NCBI GenBank assembly: GCA_964342405.1
Contig: CAYFGX010000002.1
Span: 209,969-273,968 of the forward strand
Direction of reading: 5' to 3'
Source of the DNA: an uncultured Verrucomicrobiota bacterium
Lineage (GTDB): Bacteria; Verrucomicrobiota; Verrucomicrobiia; Limisphaerales; AAA164-E04
DNA: 64,000 nt
The notes below the pieces were generated by a model, which was given only the letters and a program-made list of their open reading frames with translations, had not been told where the DNA came from and did no database searches. The stretch's first letter is position 1. Each line of letters starts with the position of its first letter. The position numbers and the translations under genes are program-made. Positions 45,124 to 63,556 of this stretch are shown here, piece by piece.

Positions 45124-47784
45124 CTAGGATTTCAAGGCAGCTCGAGCGGCTTCTAAACTCTTTTGCGTATGAGCCAGTTTGTCACCCCATTCTGCCAATC
45201 GTTTCCGATGTTCATCAACGACGGCTGGAGGTGCCTTGGCGGCAAAATTCGGATTGCTCAACTTAGCGTTGGCCTTCTCAATCTCCTTCTCGATCTTCTC
45301 GGCTTCCTTGGTCAACCGCTCCACCTCGGCCTCGAAATCGACCAAGCCTTCCAATGGCAAGTAGAGATCTCCCAGCTCGGAGTGAACACTTGGTGTTCCT
45401 TGAGGCGCTTCGTAGTCGGGATCGAGATCAAGGGGTTCCGCATTCAACAAGCCCTGGAGAACGCTCGCGTCATGGGGCATGATCTCGCGGGAATTCTTCA
45501 TGACGAAGCGCACCCGCTTGTTTGAAGCGATGTTTGCTTCCGCTCGAAGGTTCCGTCCTTCTCTCACCAGGGCATACTTCGCTTCCACAAACTCGAGATA
45601 ACAGTCATCGAGTCCATAACAGTCCTTGAAGTCTTGATCAAAGGCTTTCGGCCAGCGGGCGTTCATCACGGTAAAGCCTCCTTGCTCCTCGGGAAGTTCC
45701 GTGGCGAAGCCCATTCCCTGCCAAAGCTCTTCCGTGATGAACGGCAAAAAGGGATGGAGGAGTCGCAGGGTGTTCCCCAGGACAAAATCAATGACCGCCA
45801 AGGTATTCGCTTTCTGAGCCTCGTCCTCTCCATAGAGTATCGCCTTGGAAGCCTCGACATACCAATCGCAGTATTCACTCCAAAAGAAGCGATAAAGAAC
45901 ATTGGTTGCCTCGTTCAACTTGTGCTCTTCAATTGAGGCAGTGACCTCGTCGATCGCACGACCTAGCTTCAATAGAATCCACTTGTCATCCGTGGTCAGA
46001 AGGCCTTCATTCAACTCAGCTTCTGTTTCGCCGCCTTGCATCTGACGAAAGCGGCAAGCGTTCCAAAGCTTGTTACAGAAGTTTCGTCCCAGCTCCACAT
46101 TCTGTTCGTCGAACAACGTATCTTGCCCGCGGGGTGTCGAACGCATGATTCCAAACCGAAGCGCATCTGCTCCGTACTGCGCAATCAAATCCAAGGGGTC
46201 CGGGGAATTGCCAAGACTCTTCGACATCTTTCTTCCTTGTCGATCTCGGACGATGCCATGAAGCACGACCGTCTCGAAGGGCTTCACATCCTTGTATTCC
46301 AAGCCCGCCATAATCATTCGAGCCACCCAGAAGAAAAGAATCTCAGGGGCGGTGACCAGTACTGAGGTCGGATAGAATTTTTTGAGCGTAGCCTCATCCA
46401 TCGTGGCAAAAGGCCACAACCATGAAGAACACCAGGTGTCTAGAACGTCTGGATCTTGAGTCCAATCATCGCCTGGGGAATCCACTTGGCATTTAACCTC
46501 ATCACCACGATACCAGACCGGAATCTGATGCCCCCACCAAAGCTGTCGGCTGATACACCAGTCCTGCAGGTTCTCCATCCAGTGATCGTAGACCTTAGTC
46601 CAACGTTCCGGAAAAAACTTCATTTCACCGGAGTCCACAACTTCCTTGGCTTGTGCGGCGCTCGGGTACTTCATGAACCATTGCTCCGAGAGACGAGGCT
46701 CAATGGGAACATCCGCACGTTCGCTGAATCCGACATTGTTGGTGTAGGCTTCTTCTTTCTCCAACAGGCCCATTTCATCCAACACCTGGGACGCTACCTT
46801 CCGTGCCTTGAATCGATCCAATCCCTTGAGATCTGCGCCAGCGGCCTCGGCCATGCGCCCATCAGATTCGATCACTTCAATCACAGCTAGAGAATGTCGC
46901 TCGCCGATCTCAAAGTCGGCTTTGTCATGCGCAGGGGTCACCTTGAGCACACCTGTTCCGAATTCAAAATCAACATGCTCATCCGCGACGATCGGGATTT
47001 GCTTCTCGTCATCTGAGAGTTCCCGAGGCAGAGGTCGACGGACATGTTTCCCGATGTATTTCGCATAACGGGGATCCTTCGGATTGACGGCGATTCCTGA
47101 GTCACCTGGGATCGTTTCGGGTCGGGTGGTTGCAATGGTGAGAAAGGTTCCCGGTTCTTCAATGATCTCCACCTTGAAGTAATAGAGAAGCCCCTTCTGC
47201 TCTTTCATGATCACCTCTTCATCTGAAAGAGCCGTCAAGGATACCGGACACCAGTTCACCATTCGCTTCCCTCGATAGATCAGCCCCTTGTTATAGAGAT
47301 CTACAAAGGTTTCCGCCACCATTCGCGAGTAGTCCTCATCCATGGTGAATCGTTCTCTCGACCAGTCGCAGGAACAGCCCAACTTCTTCAACTGATCGAT
47401 GATGATTCCGCCGTGCTTCTCCTTCCACTGCCACACCTTCTCGATGAATTTCTCACGGCCGAGATCATGACGGGATTGACCCTGTTCTTTCTTCAGCCGT
47501 TTCTCCACCACAACCTGGGTGGCGATTCCCGCGTGGTCTGTCCCTGGAAGCCAGAGCACTTCGCAACCATCCATTCTCGCCTTCCTCGCAAGAATGTCTT
47601 GGATCGTATTGTTGAGCACGTGTCCCATGTGAAGAACGCCGGTCACATTGGGCGGAGGGATCACAATGGAGAAGGCAGGCTTCGATGATTGTGGATCCGC
47701 TTGGAAGCAATCATGGTCCAACCATCGTTGATACCATTTGGACTCAAAGTTCTGCGGTTCGTATGCTTTTGGGATGTCGGACAT
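45124..47784 (-). CDS. valS: Valine--tRNA ligase
   Basis: From ATG 47784: MSDIPKAYEPQNFESKWYQRW, HIGH motif (PNVTGVLHMGH), KMSKS, and a C-terminal coiled coil. The ORF-track start at 47859 overlaps cimA and is rejected. Confidence 0.97.
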   Translation of the reverse strand: MSDIPKAYEPQNFESKWYQRWLDHDCFQADPQSSKPAFSIVIPPPNVTGVLHMGHVLNNTIQDILARKARMDGCEVLWLPGTDHAGIATQVVVEKRLKKEQGQSRHDLGREKFIEKVWQWKEKHGGIIIDQLKKLGCSCDWSRERFTMDEDYSRMVAETFVDLYNKGLIYRGKRMVNWCPVSLTALSDEEVIMKEQKGLLYYFKVEIIEEPGTFLTIATTRPETIPGDSGIAVNPKDPRYAKYIGKHVRRPLPRELSDDEKQIPIVADEHVDFEFGTGVLKVTPAHDKADFEIGERHSLAVIEVIESDGRMAEAAGADLKGLDRFKARKVASQVLDEMGLLEKEEAYTNNVGFSERADVPIEPRLSEQWFMKYPSAAQAKEVVDSGEMKFFPERWTKVYDHWMENLQDWCISRQLWWGHQIPVWYRGDEVKCQVDSPGDDWTQDPDVLDTWCSSWLWPFATMDEATLKKFYPTSVLVTAPEILFFWVARMIMAGLEYKDVKPFETVVLHGIVRDRQGRKMSKSLGNSPDPLDLIAQYGADALRFGIMRSTPRGQDTLFDEQNVELGRNFCNKLWNACRFRQMQGGETEAELNEGLLTTDDKWILLKLGRAIDEVTASIEEHKLNEATNVLYRFFWSEYCDWYVEASKAILYGEDEAQKANTLAVIDFVLGNTLRLLHPFLPFITEELWQGMGFATELPEEQGGFTVMNARWPKAFDQDFKDCYGLDDCYLEFVEAKYALVREGRNLRAEANIASNKRVRFVMKNSREIMPHDASVLQGLLNAEPLDLDPDYEAPQGTPSVHSELGDLYLPLEGLVDFEAEVERLTKEAEKIEKEIEKANAKLSNPNFAAKAPPAVVDEHRKRLAEWGDKLAHTQKSLEAARAALKS

Positions 47785-47821
47785 AGAGCACTCGTTCGTA
47801 GATTTCTGGATCACGCGAAGC

Positions 47822-49438
47822 CTAACGCCGCGCTTTCTTCTTCTTAGCCTTGGACGCAACAGCTGGCTTCTGAATCATTAACCGATACTCCAAACTGTCG
47901 ATCAGAGCTCGGAGACTGGCTTCGACGATATTGTCATGGGCGGCAACCGTACACCAACTGGTCGTCCCGTCGGAGGATTCGAGAAAGACTCGCGTCTTGG
48001 CCGCCGTGCCACTGGAGGAGTCCAGAATCCTCACCTTGTAATCGATCAGCTTCACCGGTCCTACCTGCTTGGGAAAGAACTGACGAAGGGCCAATCGCAA
48101 GGCCCCGTCCAACGCGTTTACGGGTCCGTCTCCCTCAGCAACGGTATGGGCGACTTCGTCTCCCACACGAACTTTAGTCGTCGCCTGACAGACAGAAGTC
48201 TGGTCATCTCGACGCATGGAAACATGATAGCCTTCCACTTCAAAGGGTAGCGAAACTCCCTTAATTCTTCGATGTATGAGAAGCGCCAAAGAAGCCTCTG
48301 CCGCCTCAAACTCATAGCCCTCGTGCTCAAGTTTTTTGACATCTTTCAAGATGTCTTTGAGTTCGGGAGTACTGTTATCGATGTTGAAACCCATTTCCTG
48401 GGCCTTCATGACGATATTGCTTCGGCCCGCTAAGTCGCTCATCAGAATCCGACGATGGTTGCCCACGGTTTCCGGCTGGCTGTGCTCGAAGCTATGAGCC
48501 ACCTTCTGTACTGCATTGACATGCATGCCACCTTTGTGAGCAAAGGCTGAAGACCCTACCCACGGTCGTCGACTTTCGTGAGCCAAGTTTGCGATTTCCG
48601 CCACGTAGTTCGAAAGATCCACGAGAGACCGGATCGACTTCTTCGGCACGCAGGGCCGGTTCATCTTGAGAGCCACGTTAGGGATGATCGAAGTGAGGCT
48701 GCAGTTTCCGGTCCGCTCACCGTATCCGTTGATCGTTCCTTGTACTTGCATTGCTCCGACATCGATCGCTGCCAAAGCGTTGGCAACACCGAGGCCGATA
48801 TCATCGTGGGTATGGATCCCAATCGGGCAAGCGACTTTCTCTACGGCTTCCTGAGTGATGCGCTGCACCTCAGACGGTAGGCTGCCGCCGTTCGTGTCAC
48901 AGAGCGTTACCGTATCTGCTCCAGCTTCAGCAGCGGCGATCCAAGTTTGCAGAGCATAATCAGGGCTGTCCTTGAAACCATCAAACGCATGCTCCGCATC
49001 ATAGATCACGTAGCGTCCATTTTTCTTCAAGTAGCGGACCGTATCGGCGATCATCTTGAGATTCTCCTCTGGAGTCGTCTTGATGACCTCTTGGACGTGC
49101 AAAAGCCAGGTCTTTCCAAAAATCGTGACGACCGGAGTCTCAGCCTTGAGCAACAACTCCACTTGAGCGTCCTTGTGCACCTTGACCCCCTTCCGTCGCG
49201 TGGAACCAAAGGCCGCGATCTTCGCTTTTTTCCATCGACGCTTCCGAGCCAGCTCGAAGAATTCAATGTCACGAGGATTGGATCCCGGCCATCCACCCTC
49301 AATGTAGTGAATTCCAAAATGGTCGAAGCGTTCGGCGAGACGAATCTTATCGGCCACCGAGAAGTTAACTCCCTCGCCTTGCGTGCCATCACGCAAGGTC
49401 GTGTCGTAGATTTCGATTTTGGAATTTTTCTTAGCCAT
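47822..49438 (-). CDS. cimA: Citramalate synthase (LeuA/CimA family, long-form CimA type)
   Basis: IEIYDTTLRDGTQGEGVNFSVADKIRLAERFDHFGIHYIEGGWPGSNPRDIEFF and the C-terminal LeuA-dimer-like regulatory domain match the citramalate synthase subfamily rather than classical LeuA. Confidence 0.8.
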   Translation of the reverse strand: MAKKNSKIEIYDTTLRDGTQGEGVNFSVADKIRLAERFDHFGIHYIEGGWPGSNPRDIEFFELARKRRWKKAKIAAFGSTRRKGVKVHKDAQVELLLKAETPVVTIFGKTWLLHVQEVIKTTPEENLKMIADTVRYLKKNGRYVIYDAEHAFDGFKDSPDYALQTWIAAAEAGADTVTLCDTNGGSLPSEVQRITQEAVEKVACPIGIHTHDDIGLGVANALAAIDVGAMQVQGTINGYGERTGNCSLTSIIPNVALKMNRPCVPKKSIRSLVDLSNYVAEIANLAHESRRPWVGSSAFAHKGGMHVNAVQKVAHSFEHSQPETVGNHRRILMSDLAGRSNIVMKAQEMGFNIDNSTPELKDILKDVKKLEHEGYEFEAAEASLALLIHRRIKGVSLPFEVEGYHVSMRRDDQTSVCQATTKVRVGDEVAHTVAEGDGPVNALDGALRLALRQFFPKQVGPVKLIDYKVRILDSSSGTAAKTRVFLESSDGTTSWCTVAAHDNIVEASLRALIDSLEYRLMIQKPAVASKAKKKKARR

Positions 49439-49486
49439 GGGATCGTTGGTAAACGGTTAGAAGTGCAGCCGTGAGAAGGCGAGAGG

Positions 49487-49636
49487 AAAAAACCGGCGAA
49501 GCGCCAGTTTCTAGTCGATAATAATAATAGACCCTACAACACAAACACTCGCCGTCTTTCGAGTGAAAGACAGAACGTGGCAGGACAGAGAATCACTAGC
49601 CGCTGAGGTTTTTGGTTGTAGAGTTATTGGAGCCAT
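49487..49636 (-). promoter_or_regulatory. Candidate Ile-responsive leader: 41-codon leader ORF ending IIIID-stop, plus an intrinsic terminator upstream of cimA
   Basis: Minus strand: ATG 49636..TAG 49513-49511 encodes MAPITLQPKTSAASDSLSCHVLSFTRKTASVCVVGSIIIID. The codons AUU AUU AUU AUC GAC UAG are followed after 3 nt by CUGGCG-CUU-CGCCGG + U6 (49507-49487). The cimA ATG lies 48 nt further on. Confidence 0.5.
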
Positions 49637-49858
49637 AGGAGGCCTTATCGGGGAGCAAGATGCCCCAACCTCAAAGAGAAATCAAGCATTGAGGTTGGGA
49701 TACTGTGAAATCTGGGAAAGGTATGCTAGCGGGCAAACCGTTCGTGAATCGCCCGAGCTGCCTGCGTCCACCAGGTCGCAACTCCCTCTTCTTTCTACCG
49801 GTTCTCAACACGGGTAGTCGTCCTTACTCGTTCCTTTGCCTCTGAAACACGAACTCGG

Positions 49859-50929
49859 TTAAGCACCGGCCGCTCGTTCTCGACGGTCTCTTACGGCTGC
49901 TGCCAAGGAATCGAGGATGGGTTCCGTTTGCTCCCAAGAAATGCAGGCATCGGTGATACTCTTGCCATAATCAGATTCTTCGGGCGTGGTGTATTTCTGT
50001 TTCCCCTCTTCGAGGTGGCTCTCCAACATCACACCAAAGATCTCCGTAGATCCATTGCTGATCTGCTTGGCCAAGTCCTCAGCAACGGCAGGTTGACGTC
50101 GATGGTCTTTCTTGCTGTTTCCGTGACTGCAGTCAACCATCACGGACGGCCAGAGTCCGGAGTCTTTTAGCTTGGCAGTCACCTCAGCAACCGATGCCTC
50201 ATCGAAATTAGGTCCTTTGTTCGAGCCACGAAGAATGAGGTGACAGCAATCATTCCCCCGAGTCTCAACGATCGCAGCCAAGCCTTGTTTGGTCACGGAC
50301 AGGAATCGATGTTTTTGGCACGAGGCACCTACAGCGTCGATCGCGATCTGAACACTCCCGTCTGTTCCGTTCTTGAATCCAACCGGCATGGATAAACCAG
50401 AGGCTAGCTCACGGTGCACTTGGCTCTCGGTAGTTCGGGCACCAATCGCGCCCCAGGCTACTAGATCACCGGTAAACTGAGGAACGATCGTATCAAGAAA
50501 CTCACTTCCCGCAGGAAGTCCCATTTCGGCGAGATCGATCAAGAGCTTACGGGCAAGCCGAAGACCATGGTTTATCTGGAAACTACCATCAATTCCCGGG
50601 TCGTTTATCAAACCTTTCCAGCCAACGGTCGTGCGGGGCTTCTCGAAATAGACCCGCATCACAATCAAGAGATCTTTGTCTAGACGCTGCTTCACCTGCA
50701 CGAGCTTCTCGCCATACTCCAAAGCCGCCTCTGGATCGTGGATCGAGCACGGCCCCACAATGACCATGATCCGATCATCTTCTCCGCGCACTATTCTTTC
50801 TGCCGCGCGGCGTCCTTCCGCCACAACATCCGAAGCTCGCTCACTTATCGGAAGCTCCTCCATCAGGATTGCCGGCGGCAACAGAGGGTGAAGAGATTGA
50901 ATTCTTAAATCGTCAGTGTCCTTTATCAT
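49859..50929 (-). CDS. aroG: 3-deoxy-7-phosphoheptulonate (DAHP) synthase, class I
   Basis: 356 aa. The blocks IVGPCSIHDPEAALEYG, RVYFEKPRTTVGWKGLINDP and DCSHGNS are canonical for class I-alpha DAHP synthases. The feedback specificity (F/Y/W) is not determinable. Confidence 0.92.
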   Translation of the reverse strand: MIKDTDDLRIQSLHPLLPPAILMEELPISERASDVVAEGRRAAERIVRGEDDRIMVIVGPCSIHDPEAALEYGEKLVQVKQRLDKDLLIVMRVYFEKPRTTVGWKGLINDPGIDGSFQINHGLRLARKLLIDLAEMGLPAGSEFLDTIVPQFTGDLVAWGAIGARTTESQVHRELASGLSMPVGFKNGTDGSVQIAIDAVGASCQKHRFLSVTKQGLAAIVETRGNDCCHLILRGSNKGPNFDEASVAEVTAKLKDSGLWPSVMVDCSHGNSKKDHRRQPAVAEDLAKQISNGSTEIFGVMLESHLEEGKQKYTTPEESDYGKSITDACISWEQTEPILDSLAAAVRDRRERAAGA

Positions 50930-51178
50930 TTCTCAGGGGCCTGGAGTATATGGATCACCTTCAAGGAGAAAAGAACGAGTTGAAAAGAACCTAAGTTTTT
51001 TGCGGAGAATGATTCGCACAGCCTGGAATACCAATTTTCTTTGCCTAGACAATTAAAATTAGTTGCATCTAAGTTGAACTGCCGAAAGCCCGCCGATCAG
51101 GAACGATCGACGGTGAGTTGAAGCTCGCTTCTCCGTCCATGCCTCCGGGCCATCGTCTGACCTCCGAGAGCGACGAGT

Positions 51179-51697
51179 CTAAGGTTCTTTGCGATCAATC
51201 TCTTGAATCAGAGCTCGAATCGCAAAATCAATATGCTCCGTGCCACTCTCTGGAGATTGAGTCGGCCGAGCCTTTTGTCTTCCGAAAAAGCGTGAGAAAC
51301 TATTCTGCTCTCCAGGCACATCGCAGACATTCCAAAATCGGAGCCTATCTTTCTGTTCAAGAATCTTCGGGATTTGCCCAAATCTTTCCCGCAACATTGG
51401 CTCGTGTTCCTCGCGGTTCAAGGCGATTAACAGATCGGCCTCTTCAAGATCCGAGACCTTGAGCTGCATCGGATTCCGGGTCGGATCGACGTGGGGCGAC
51501 AAGCCACGTTTTTCTAGGTACTCAAAAGTGAAAGGCGAAATACCCCGTAAGCCTCCACTTTCAACCATACCACGAGAGGTCGCTTCCCAAGGAAGGTCTG
51601 TTTGCTGAACGTAGAAGTTAAACAGTTCCTCGGCGAGTCGGCTCCGGTAATAGTTTCCGGTGCAAATGAAAATGACTTGGCTGTATTCTTCTTCCAT
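51179..51697 (-). CDS. Low-molecular-weight protein-tyrosine phosphatase / ArsC-like (LMWPc) family protein
   Basis: P-loop VIFICTGNYYRSRLAE (C-X5-R-S). Size 172 aa. Confidence 0.7.
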   Translation of the reverse strand: MEEEYSQVIFICTGNYYRSRLAEELFNFYVQQTDLPWEATSRGMVESGGLRGISPFTFEYLEKRGLSPHVDPTRNPMQLKVSDLEEADLLIALNREEHEPMLRERFGQIPKILEQKDRLRFWNVCDVPGEQNSFSRFFGRQKARPTQSPESGTEHIDFAIRALIQEIDRKEP

Positions 51698-62296: not shown

Positions 62297-63556
62297 TTGT
62301 ACGGTATGAAAAAACTAATTGCTTCAGCCGGTATTGCTGCTGTCGGTGCCGCCACACTTCAGGCAGCACCGCAGGTCGGACTCGGCCCGAACCAAACATC
62401 GAAACCGTGGAGCATCTCAGCATCACTTCGGGGCTTTTACGATGACAACATCACCACAGTCCCGAACGCCATCGCAGAGGAGAGCTTCGGAATCGAAGTA
62501 TCTCCTTCGATCAATTACAATGTTGTCCGTGATCAGACTCAGATCGGTCTTGGCTACACCTTCGGACTTCGCTGGTTCGAAGATCGAGAGCCAGATAGTA
62601 GTGACGAATCCCACACGGTCTCTGCCAATGTTGTCCACGACGCTTCACCAACACTCCGATTTGAACTATCCGATACTTTCCGCGTAGCCCAGGAGCCTAC
62701 TATTGCGAACGGTGCACGCACACGTGTTATCCGAGGTGAACAAGATTACATTCATAATGAGGCTGCCATCGGAGTCACCAAAGCTCTGAACAACACCTTC
62801 TCACTCTTTGGACAATACTCCAACCGAGTGATCAACTACGATGATCCTGGATTCTCCGGAATTCTTGATCGTGTCGAGCATACACCTCTCGTCCATCTCA
62901 TGAAGCAGTTCAACCCGAACACCGTGGGTCTCATCGGTTACCGCTTCAAAGCCGTCCGATACACGGCCGACGAAATCATTCCTGGCTCCGGGCTTGATTC
63001 TGACATTCGAGACTCAGACGGTCACTACGCCTATCTCGGGGTTGATCATTCTTTCACCCCAGCATTGCAAGGTTCAGCTCGTGTGGGTCTTCAGTTCACC
63101 GACTTTACCAACGCTCCCGCTGGAGTTGACGACGACGTCACCAACCCATTTGCCGATGCCCAACTCAGCTATGGCTATGCCGAGGGAAGCAACATCCAAG
63201 TGGGTGTGAAGCATGAACGAAATCGAAACGATTTGGCCTTCGCCGGCGCAAGCTCACTGATTCTCGATCAAGAGCAAACTGTTATCTACAGTGCGATCAA
63301 TCATCGCATCACCCCCAAACTCATGGCTTCACTCCAAGGCACCTTCCTCAACGGTAGTTACGAGGGCGGCGGACCAGGAGTTGACGGAGCGAACGATGAA
63401 TACTGGGCTTTCGGTGTAAACATCAATTACGCGATCAACCAATTCCTGGCAGCTGAAGCTGGCTACAACTTTGACGATCTTGATTCTGGCGTCCTCGATG
63501 CCTTCAGAAGTTATGATCGAAATCGCGTTTACATTGGGCTTCGAGCAAGCTATTAA
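62297..63556 (+). CDS. Outer-membrane beta-barrel protein (polysaccharide-locus associated candidate)
   Basis: Signal peptide MKKLIASAGIAAVGAATLQA. Amphipathic beta-strand periodicity throughout. C-terminal YIGLRASY with a terminal aromatic residue. Located immediately upstream of a Wzz-like gene. Confidence 0.55.
   Translation: MYGMKKLIASAGIAAVGAATLQAAPQVGLGPNQTSKPWSISASLRGFYDDNITTVPNAIAEESFGIEVSPSINYNVVRDQTQIGLGYTFGLRWFEDREPDSSDESHTVSANVVHDASPTLRFELSDTFRVAQEPTIANGARTRVIRGEQDYIHNEAAIGVTKALNNTFSLFGQYSNRVINYDDPGFSGILDRVEHTPLVHLMKQFNPNTVGLIGYRFKAVRYTADEIIPGSGLDSDIRDSDGHYAYLGVDHSFTPALQGSARVGLQFTDFTNAPAGVDDDVTNPFADAQLSYGYAEGSNIQVGVKHERNRNDLAFAGASSLILDQEQTVIYSAINHRITPKLMASLQGTFLNGSYEGGGPGVDGANDEYWAFGVNINYAINQFLAAEAGYNFDDLDSGVLDAFRSYDRNRVYIGLRASY

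Follow-up and report, generated by a model that had tools for sequence, protein, structure and literature searches.

A conserved leader unit precedes the (R)-citramalate synthase gene cimA in a DNA stretch of 64,000 nt (the window) from an uncultured Verrucomicrobiota bacterium (GCA_964342405.1, contig CAYFGX010000002.1, 209,969-273,968; all coordinates are window-based). The unit comprises a 41-codon open reading frame (ORF) that ends in isoleucine codons, a long-range RNA helix (P1), and a hairpin that abuts the stop codon, and it is real, conserved, and beyond chance. The product of cimA serves the committed step of the citramalate route to isoleucine. The interpretation favored here, with moderate confidence, is that the unit is a ribosome-dependent leader-peptide attenuator, which stands before cimA and the valine-tRNA ligase gene valS, senses the charging of tRNA-Ile and probably of tRNA-Val, and operates without an antiterminator. 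An initial annotation of this DNA, made from the sequence alone, had proposed an isoleucine attenuator at this site. Its leader ORF, Ile run, and adjacent hairpin are indeed conserved, whereas the switching structures that it put forward fail.

The leader open reading frame and its conservation

The leader ORF (49511-49636, minus strand; peptide MAPITLQPKTSAASDSLSCHVLSFTRKTASVCVVGSIIIID) starts with an ATG at 49636 and comprises 41 codons plus a stop, ending GSIIIID-stop. Its Ile run, AUU AUU AUU AUC, occupies codons 37-40 (49517-49528) and is followed by GAC and the stop codon UAG (TAG, 49513-49511). ORF, Ile run, stop codon, hairpin, U6 tract, and cimA ATG are all present at the coordinates given in the initial annotation. 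The AAGG that it noted before the leader ATG also exists, but at -10 to -7 (49646-49643) and not 8-11 nt upstream.

The comparative set consisted of 160 cimA loci from genome and metagenome collections and 6 contigs obtained via a protein database (WIN, the window's own leader; WIN-group, a set of seven leaders; L-numbers, orthologous cimA loci). Its named records are nearly all Verrucomicrobiota, mostly metagenome-assembled genomes (MAGs) of the Limisphaerales/Pedosphaera type. In this set the leader is carried only by the closest relatives, with a CimA at least 78% identical. These are 12 distinct loci, namely L001 (identical to L081), L161, L082 (identical to L164), L003, L162, L163, L002, L006, L165, L166, L004, and L005, all from Limisphaerales-type Verrucomicrobiota. 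A comparison of related cimA upstream regions had been suggested in the initial annotation as a way to check its idea, and in the closest relatives the ORF, the Ile run, and the hairpin are kept. A covariance model built from 6 leaders matches only cimA leaders in 1.19 Mb, and recovers two leaders outside its building set (L002 with 50 bits and L161 with 84 bits). A profile of the leader peptide, run against 5.8 billion proteins, matches only the leaders of L003 and L163. Neither the peptide-profile search nor the covariance-model search, over these same collections, found paralogous leaders. These searches, together with the distribution among the cimA loci, indicate that the leader is confined to one small clade.

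Of the 13 distinct leaders (the window's and its 12 relatives'), 11 have an open ORF. The two without an intact ORF are L161, the 5' end of which is lost to the contig end, and L004, which has a 26-nt deletion. The intact ORFs have 41 codons in five leaders, 44 in three, and 42, 43, and 55 in one leader each, and all of them keep the frame. When eight leaders were tested, frame 0 was open in seven, while frames +1 and +2 were closed in all eight. The middle of the peptide is unconserved and cannot be aligned; the joint chance of these unalignable middles being open is ~0.03, before counting that the intact lengths are all multiples of three. In the tail, Gly-Ser-Ile-Ile-Ile-Val-Asp-stop, variation falls mostly at third codon positions. 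Over the last eight codons of the WIN-group leaders, third positions account for five of the seven variable sites (binomial calculated by hand, ~0.045), and the variants include GGG/GGA, all four UCN serine codons (UCU/UCC/UCA/UCG), AUU/AUC, GAC/GAU, and UAG/UAA. Two of the source annotations call the leader ORF as a gene. These data suggest that the leader ORF is a real coding sequence and that it is translated.

Counted back from the stop codon, the consensus of the tail is G/S, S, I, I, I/N/S, V, D/G. Isoleucine stands at positions -5 and -4 in seven of eight lineages, the WIN-group leaders have III(I/V), that is, 3-4 consecutive Ile codons, and one further Ile codon is retained at codon 4-6. 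Conservation of the Gly-Ser pair is attributed to the P1 helix described below. The conserved valine at position -2, together with valS in the operon, suggests that valine is read as well.

The L004 deletion deserves separate mention. L004 is a complete-chromosome MAG and lacks 26 nt of leader that are present in the otherwise near-identical L166. The deletion disrupts the 44-codon ORF, and what is left is a 13-codon ORF (MSFIEPSMIISVG) that starts at an internal ATG. Either a natural loss variant or an error of assembly would account for the difference.

The arrangement is also rare. A signature scan looked for an ATG-initiated ORF of 8-70 codons with at least three identical residues in its last eight codons, followed by a hairpin (-9 kcal/mol or better, no more than 14 nt from the stop codon) and a U-rich tail. 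On both strands of the 64-kb window (128 kb of strand) the leader site is the single match. Over 1.1 Mb of related loci, again on both strands, an Ile run with this signature occurs only in cimA leaders, and about a dozen further matches are noise-like. The string III does not occur in the 12,162 residues of the window's proteins, and hairpin-plus-U terminators follow only 3 of its 45 large ORFs. The 262-nt leader folds at -83.2 kcal/mol, with a z-score of -5.9 against dinucleotide shuffles. As a side observation, the strongest of the three hairpin-plus-U terminators (12-bp stem and U7) lies ~27 nt after an ORF that ends at 63556.

Structure, promoter and spacer of the leader RNA

The best-supported structural feature of the leader is P1, which the initial annotation had missed. 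Its 5' strand (AAUAACUCUACAAC, codons 3.3-8.1, 49615-49628, minus strand), identified by minimum-energy folding and covariation, pairs codons 4.3-8.1 with codons 33.1-36.2 in the 3' strand (GUUGUAGGGUCUAUU, codons 33-37, 49526-49540, minus strand), which reaches the start of the Ile run; the helix ends 1-2 nt before the run. P1 is found in the minimum-energy fold of the WIN-group leaders. Across its 11 pairs, 81.8% of cells are paired, compared with 20-48% when the partner strand is slid, and four pairs have changed on both sides (for instance, the window has C:G where others have U:A). Inside the P1 domain of the window lies a 7-bp hairpin, GUCUUUC-ACUC-GAAAGAC (49554-49571, minus strand). 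This inner hairpin had been given a part in the switching scheme of the initial annotation; it is present in the window, but its sequence is not conserved, and orthologs have different inner hairpins inside P1.

Directly after the TAG begins a predicted intrinsic terminator (AAACUGGCG-CUU-CGCCGGUUU followed by UUU, 49487-49510, minus strand). Its core, CUGGCG-CUU-CGCCGG (49507-49493), is extendable to AAACUGGCG/CGCCGGUUU (49510-49490) and is followed by a U6 tract at 49492-49487, which gives the window copy the form of a canonical terminator with a 9-bp stem and U6. All WIN-group leaders have a hairpin in the same place, each matched by no more than 3% of shuffles. The sequence of the hairpin varies (CUGGCG, CCAGC, UCCUCG, and others) and the pairing is kept: 90.5% of cells are paired across seven pairs, three of which have changed on both sides. 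P1 and the hairpin taken together have 85.2% of cells paired, against 23-48% in slid controls, with seven pairs changed on both sides, and no more than 2 of 500 shuffles reach the observed values. In seven leaders the hairpin starts between -2 and +1 nt from the stop codon. In L163 (GUCGACUAG-GAAA-CUAGUCGAC) and L005 it starts at -9, inside the last codons. The possibility that L163 carries a classical antiterminator/terminator pair was rejected: a hairpin at the homologous position gives only -0.5 kcal/mol, and the L163 hairpin is therefore simply shifted over the last codons. L002, the L006 type, and L005 all keep the ORF, and their structures are weaker or shifted. The U-tract is canonical only in WIN, L082, L162, and L006, and elsewhere it is a C/U-rich tract. 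A generic terminator scan of 47500-51500 omitted the leader hairpin, though it seems to satisfy the scan's stated rules, and reported weaker intragenic sites.

Upstream of the ORF, the sole conserved blocks are CTTG(C/A)N and, 17 nt later, CAnnnT. The first corresponds to a predicted -35 box (TTGATT in the window, 49680-49685, minus strand; CTTGCG in most orthologs), in which CTTG is invariant among 8 aligned orthologs. The second corresponds to a predicted -10 box (CATCTT, 49657-49662, minus strand; CATAAT in L006-type leaders), with C-A-n-n-n-T invariant in the same 8 orthologs. The 17-nt spacing is constant in these orthologs, and the same arrangement occurs in L162 and L163. From the -10 box to the leader ATG there are 19-21 nt in WIN, L162, and L163, which implies a 5' untranslated region (UTR) of ~13 nt. 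These boxes would fit a sigma-70-type leader promoter. It is too far from the Escherichia coli consensus to have been listed by a generic promoter scan. From the hairpin up to the start of cimA, no comparable promoter is recognizable. The predicted -35 box sits in the 14-nt loop of a perfect 11-bp inverted repeat, CCCAACCUCAA...UUGAGGUUGGG (49664-49699, minus strand), which was not seen in the aligned orthologs. This repeat could act as a terminator on the aroG side, or as an operator-like element that is specific to this genome.

Between the hairpin and cimA lies a C/U/A-rich, G-poor spacer (49439-49486, minus strand), with the cimA ATG (49438) 48 nt beyond the U-tract. The distance from leader stop to cimA ATG is 72-78 nt in all 13 leaders. 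Only 6 of 31 ATG-start ORFs in the window have a Shine-Dalgarno-like 4-mer; the genome is Shine-Dalgarno-poor, and the spacer composition is like that of its ordinary 5' UTRs. The 5' UTRs of the window are A/C-rich and G-poor. The spacer contains a conserved box, AACCGUUUACCAAC (49458-49445, minus strand; AAACCGUU(N)A(C/U)CAA in orthologs), ~10-20 nt before the cimA ATG, and this box resembles the 5' arm of the hairpin in several orthologs. A translational switch, in which the 3' arm of the hairpin would pair with the AAACCG-like box, was rejected, as the pairing is no better than in shuffles (fraction 0.10-0.99) and its positions vary. A Rho site in the C-rich spacer is likewise not supported: the composition is that of an ordinary 5' UTR, and none of the models showed an effect that depends on stalling.

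Antiterminators were sought in two ways. Five orthologs underwent constraint folding with a ribosome footprint (A site -15 to +11) that covered in turn codons 2-11, each of the final codons, and the stop codon; in addition, duplex scans tested all leader windows for pairing with one or the other terminator arm. When the footprint covers the conserved Ile codons, four of the five orthologs retain the terminator with a probability of ~0.9, and L082 retains it with 0.65, which is also its value when no ribosome is present. Stalling at the early Ile codon likewise changes nothing. For the terminator to be lost from the folding model, the A site must be at the stop codon or at one of the last two sense codons. 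Even the best partners of the two arms pair weakly, and they are found at differing places in L001, L082, L003, and L002. Folding for mutually exclusive structures, as the initial annotation had advised, found no alternative that displaces the hairpin. That annotation had also cautioned that a ribosome at the stop codon would mask the 5' arm and that the switching logic was unclear; this doubt proves to be the central issue.

Proposed mechanism and competing explanations

The element is best placed among direct-occlusion devices, of which pyrBI and pyrE are examples, rather than with the trp type, because of its stop-hairpin geometry and the distance data from E. coli. Measurements in E. coli show that the ribosome represses a terminator almost completely when only a few bp separate it from the stop codon, and that efficiency recovers only beyond ~18-30 bp (PMC4824070).

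In the favored scheme, RNA polymerase would transcribe the leader while the first ribosome translates behind it. P1 would form once its 3' strand is made, and would probably pause the polymerase ~10-13 nt further on, at the conserved AUC/GUC/GAC steps. P1 would also shut the start region to further initiation in an organism poor in Shine-Dalgarno sequences. The arriving ribosome would then melt P1, and ribosome and polymerase would consequently enter the last 30 nt together. With ample Ile-tRNA and Val-tRNA, the ribosome would reach the UAA or UAG stop and depart, upon which the hairpin would form and transcription would end at 49487. When Ile-tRNA or Val-tRNA is scarce, the ribosome would be slow on the last Ile and Val codons and would still abut or cover the 5' arm during synthesis of the 3' arm. 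A ribosome parked on the 5' arm would allow the polymerase to read through into cimA-valS.

The direction of this response, from starvation to read-through, is proposed on the grounds of physiology and of the closeness of the codon run to the hairpin. The usual sign would follow if departure of the terminating ribosome is quicker than escape of the polymerase from the U-tract, and if a ribosome slowed on the last Ile or Val codons remains at the 5' arm. In its favor, the codon run is as close to the hairpin as the stop codon allows, and the leader stops are UAA or UAG, the contexts of which are probably efficient. Moreover, P1 would pause the polymerase just beyond the Ile run, and its closure of the start region would leave no second ribosome to keep the 5' arm covered.

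Several findings weigh against the proposed attenuator. No conserved antiterminator was found in the constraint folds of five orthologs or in the duplex scans. When the A site is at the first conserved Ile codons, 5 and 4 codons before the stop, the hairpin stays free of the ribosome; occlusion requires a stall at the last Ile or Val codon. According to the E. coli data, slower translation should increase termination at stop-proximal terminators, and cimA would then be turned down under a shortage of Ile-tRNA. Several orthologs, among them L003, L002, and L163, have a weak or absent U-tract, and their termination may therefore not be of the intrinsic kind. In the L006 type and L005 the ORF is kept without a significant hairpin or P1, and these leaders, like L002, have only 1-2 Ile codons. 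Finally, the sampling amounts to only about a dozen sequences, all of them from uncultured organisms of one narrow clade.

The same parts could be read with the opposite sign, in the manner of pyrBI and pyrE, although this is unlikely. A ribosome keeping pace would mask the terminator, delay on the Ile codons would lead to termination, and cimA-valS would be transcribed only when the Ile codons are read fast. Constraint folding predicts this outcome directly from the geometry, no antiterminator is present, and P1 is placed as a synchronizing pause hairpin just before the Ile run. The distance-efficiency data and model from E. coli, in which slower translation raises termination at stop-proximal sites, fit as well (PMC4824070). 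On the other hand, less isoleucine-pathway enzyme at low Ile-tRNA would worsen the shortage, which leaves the scheme with no apparent physiological rationale, and a pure coupling sensor needs no tight packing of Ile run, stop codon, and hairpin. The known pyrBI and pyrE devices, furthermore, sense nucleotide pools through polymerase speed and not amino acids.

Another explanation, which we consider improbable, is that the leader is a stand-alone small RNA or small-protein gene, or a protein-bound RNA element, with the frame and the Ile codons incidental to an A/U-rich, single-stranded linker that joins two helices. The unit does have its own predicted promoter and its own terminator, two covarying helices flank an A/U-rich linker as in many terminator-ended small RNAs, and the peptide middle is unconserved. 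Against this stand the conserved frame and length, and the bias of tail substitutions to third positions. In addition, the unit always lies directly upstream of cimA at the fixed distance noted above, cimA has no recognizable promoter of its own, the covariance model finds no other copy in 1.19 Mb, and the codons match the amino acid of the downstream pathway.

Far less probable still is a classical trp/ilv-type attenuator, as the initial annotation had envisaged, in which a stall on the Ile run would free ACGGCG to pair with the CGCCG of the terminator 3' arm. In the window, an intermolecular duplex of CGGCGAG and CUUCGCCG reaches -11.4 kcal/mol, compared with -12.7 kcal/mol for the terminator hairpin, and branched-chain amino acid (BCAA) codon attenuators of the antiterminator/terminator kind occur in other phyla, for example at Mycobacterium tuberculosis ilvB1 (PMC13236596). 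However, the ACGGCG pairing exists in the window copy only and is not conserved among L001, L082, L003, and L002, the terminator keeps its probability of ~0.9 with the ribosome on the Ile codons, and the segments would need to pair across the stalled ribosome. Known terminators of this type, moreover, lie >20 bp from the leader ORF, whereas the gap here is 0-3 nt. Chance co-occurrence of ORF, AUU repeat, and hairpin, for which nothing speaks beyond the small size of each element, is negligibly probable and is refuted by conservation with covariation in 12 distinct relatives, by the single match in the whole-window signature scan, and by the independent members (L002, L161) recovered with the covariance model.

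Genomic context, known systems and significance

The minus-strand gene order is a 172-aa unknown ORF, aroG (DAHP synthase, 50929-49859), a 420-nt gap, cimA (47822-49438), and valS (45124-47784). The initial identification of cimA, and with it the fit to the isoleucine pathway, is borne out by the TIGR00977 equivalog model (710 bits versus a cut-off of 450), and valS by NF004349 (1113 bits). The true valS ATG is at 47784, 37 nt past the cimA stop, with no terminator in between, and cimA and valS are probably co-transcribed. Among the relatives, aroG lies directly upstream in L001, L082/L164, L002, L003, and L162, and valS is called downstream in L162, L165, and L166; the order aroG-leader-cimA-valS is retained in L162 and L164. 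No other amino-acid genes were found in the window for comparison.

Upstream of aroG there is no conserved leader ORF in the window, L001, L002, L003, or L162; a 7-codon ORF, MQLILIV, occurs in the window only. The region (51050-51073 and 50930-50985 in the window, minus strand) does contain a conserved palindrome of the TTAGAT-N-ATCTAA type (CTTAGATGCAACTAATTT in the window) and two conserved 5'-UTR blocks just before the aroG ATG (CAACTCGNNCTTTTC and TATACTCCNGNCCCNTNAGAA). Aromatic amino-acid control could be exerted here, through the operator of a repressor or through an RNA element. The more distant verrucomicrobial cimA loci (L012-L080 and most of L088-L160) have no leader and share a different, far more widespread upstream design. 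In the last ~70 nt before their cimA ATG (for example, L025 3930-4000), a promoter-like box, TTTGAGCTTTGCAA ... GCGTAAAAAT, is followed by a short hairpin, TTCCGC-loop-GCGGAA, directly before the start codon.

The initial annotation knew of no such leader for cimA or in PVC-group bacteria, and the searches agree with it. Rfam gave no match in the whole window at gathering score, and only noise at E-values up to 10 in 49300-50000. Full-text literature searches returned no cimA attenuator, and none of the papers listed for attenuation in Verrucomicrobia contains the name of that group. A T-box riboswitch was rejected: there is no RF00230-type match, UGGU is present in some terminator arms and missing from others, and conservation does not extend to the element's middle.

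The cimA leader shares with the classical attenuators (E. coli trp, his, thr, leu, ilvGMEDA, and ilvBN; M. tuberculosis ilvB1) a short ORF in the 5' leader with codons for the end product near its end, a predicted terminator between leader and first structural gene, and the expectation of a short terminated transcript. The ilvB1 upstream ORF of M. tuberculosis, for instance, carries 'LVVI' (PMC13236596). Classical amino-acid attenuators keep >20 bp between leader and terminator (PMC4824070), which is accounted for by the ribosomal repression of stop-proximal terminators. In contrast, the cimA leader has no antiterminator (2:3 pairing), its terminator begins 0-3 nt after the stop, its ORF is long (41 codons), one long-range helix closes the whole ORF body, and no Rfam leader family matches it. 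It thus lacks two defining features of the classical type, the antiterminator and the stop-terminator distance.

The pyrBI and pyrE leaders of E. coli are closer in layout. There, the ribosome suppresses an intrinsic terminator by direct occlusion, according to the account of Roland, Liu, and Turnbough (1988) cited in PMC4824070. As in the cimA leader, the ORF extends up to or through the terminator hairpin, there is no antiterminator, and the distance between ribosome and polymerase decides the outcome; the leader lengths are also similar (135 bp in pyrBI, 126 bp here). Unlike the cimA leader, which has Ile codons in the decisive window and precedes an isoleucine-pathway gene, pyrBI and pyrE sense UTP via polymerase pausing at U-runs, and the expected sign of the response may differ. 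Conserved pyrimidine-G steps do follow P1 at a distance of 10-13 nt. The Ile codons and cimA, as context, favor an amino acid over a nucleotide as the signal.

Two further systems bear comparison. The actinobacterial ilvB leaders were first described as having I/V/L codon runs that overlap the terminator, with an unclear mode of action (PMC1262725). Like the cimA leader, they have short ORFs, a hairpin with poly-U that overlaps or abuts them, and an antiterminator that was not evident at first; leaders of Corynebacterium glutamicum and M. tuberculosis were later assigned classical antiterminators (PMC11857589, PMC13236596). They differ from it in phylum, in gene (ilvB, not cimA), in their much shorter peptides, and in having no sequence similarity to it. 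In leaders of the tnaC type, as proposed for cimA, a ribosome at the very end of the ORF decides read-through, and the C-terminal peptide is conserved (here GSIIIVD). TnaC acts on Rho and serves to induce a catabolic operon in response to a free amino acid; the ribosome arrested at its stop codon keeps a termination factor from gaining access. Nothing indicates such arrest in the cimA leader.

The 41-codon ORF should be annotated as a regulatory leader and not as a hypothetical protein. A 2010 survey knew leader peptides only from Proteobacteria and Actinobacteria, and added hisS of Firmicutes (PMC2965389). If the favored interpretation is true, leader-peptide attenuation extends to a new phylum (Verrucomicrobiota) and to a new gene (cimA, in the citramalate route). 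Such a device would also arise repeatedly, as one small clade has it and its relatives use a different upstream region. The layout, with no antiterminator, a terminator touching the stop codon, and a helix that closes the ORF, is a natural test case for the role of ribosome-polymerase distance in intrinsic termination, set in an organism that rarely uses Shine-Dalgarno sequences. More tentatively, the leader may represent a new design, that is, an amino-acid attenuator without antiterminator RNA, in which a pioneer ribosome synchronized by P1 gates the abutting terminator through its dwell time on the last codons. If so, leader-peptide control would gain a distinct design class, and both the PVC superphylum and the citramalate route would gain their first example. 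Should the kinetics known from E. coli apply instead, the leader would be the first amino-acid attenuator of inverted sign, acting in a feed-forward manner.

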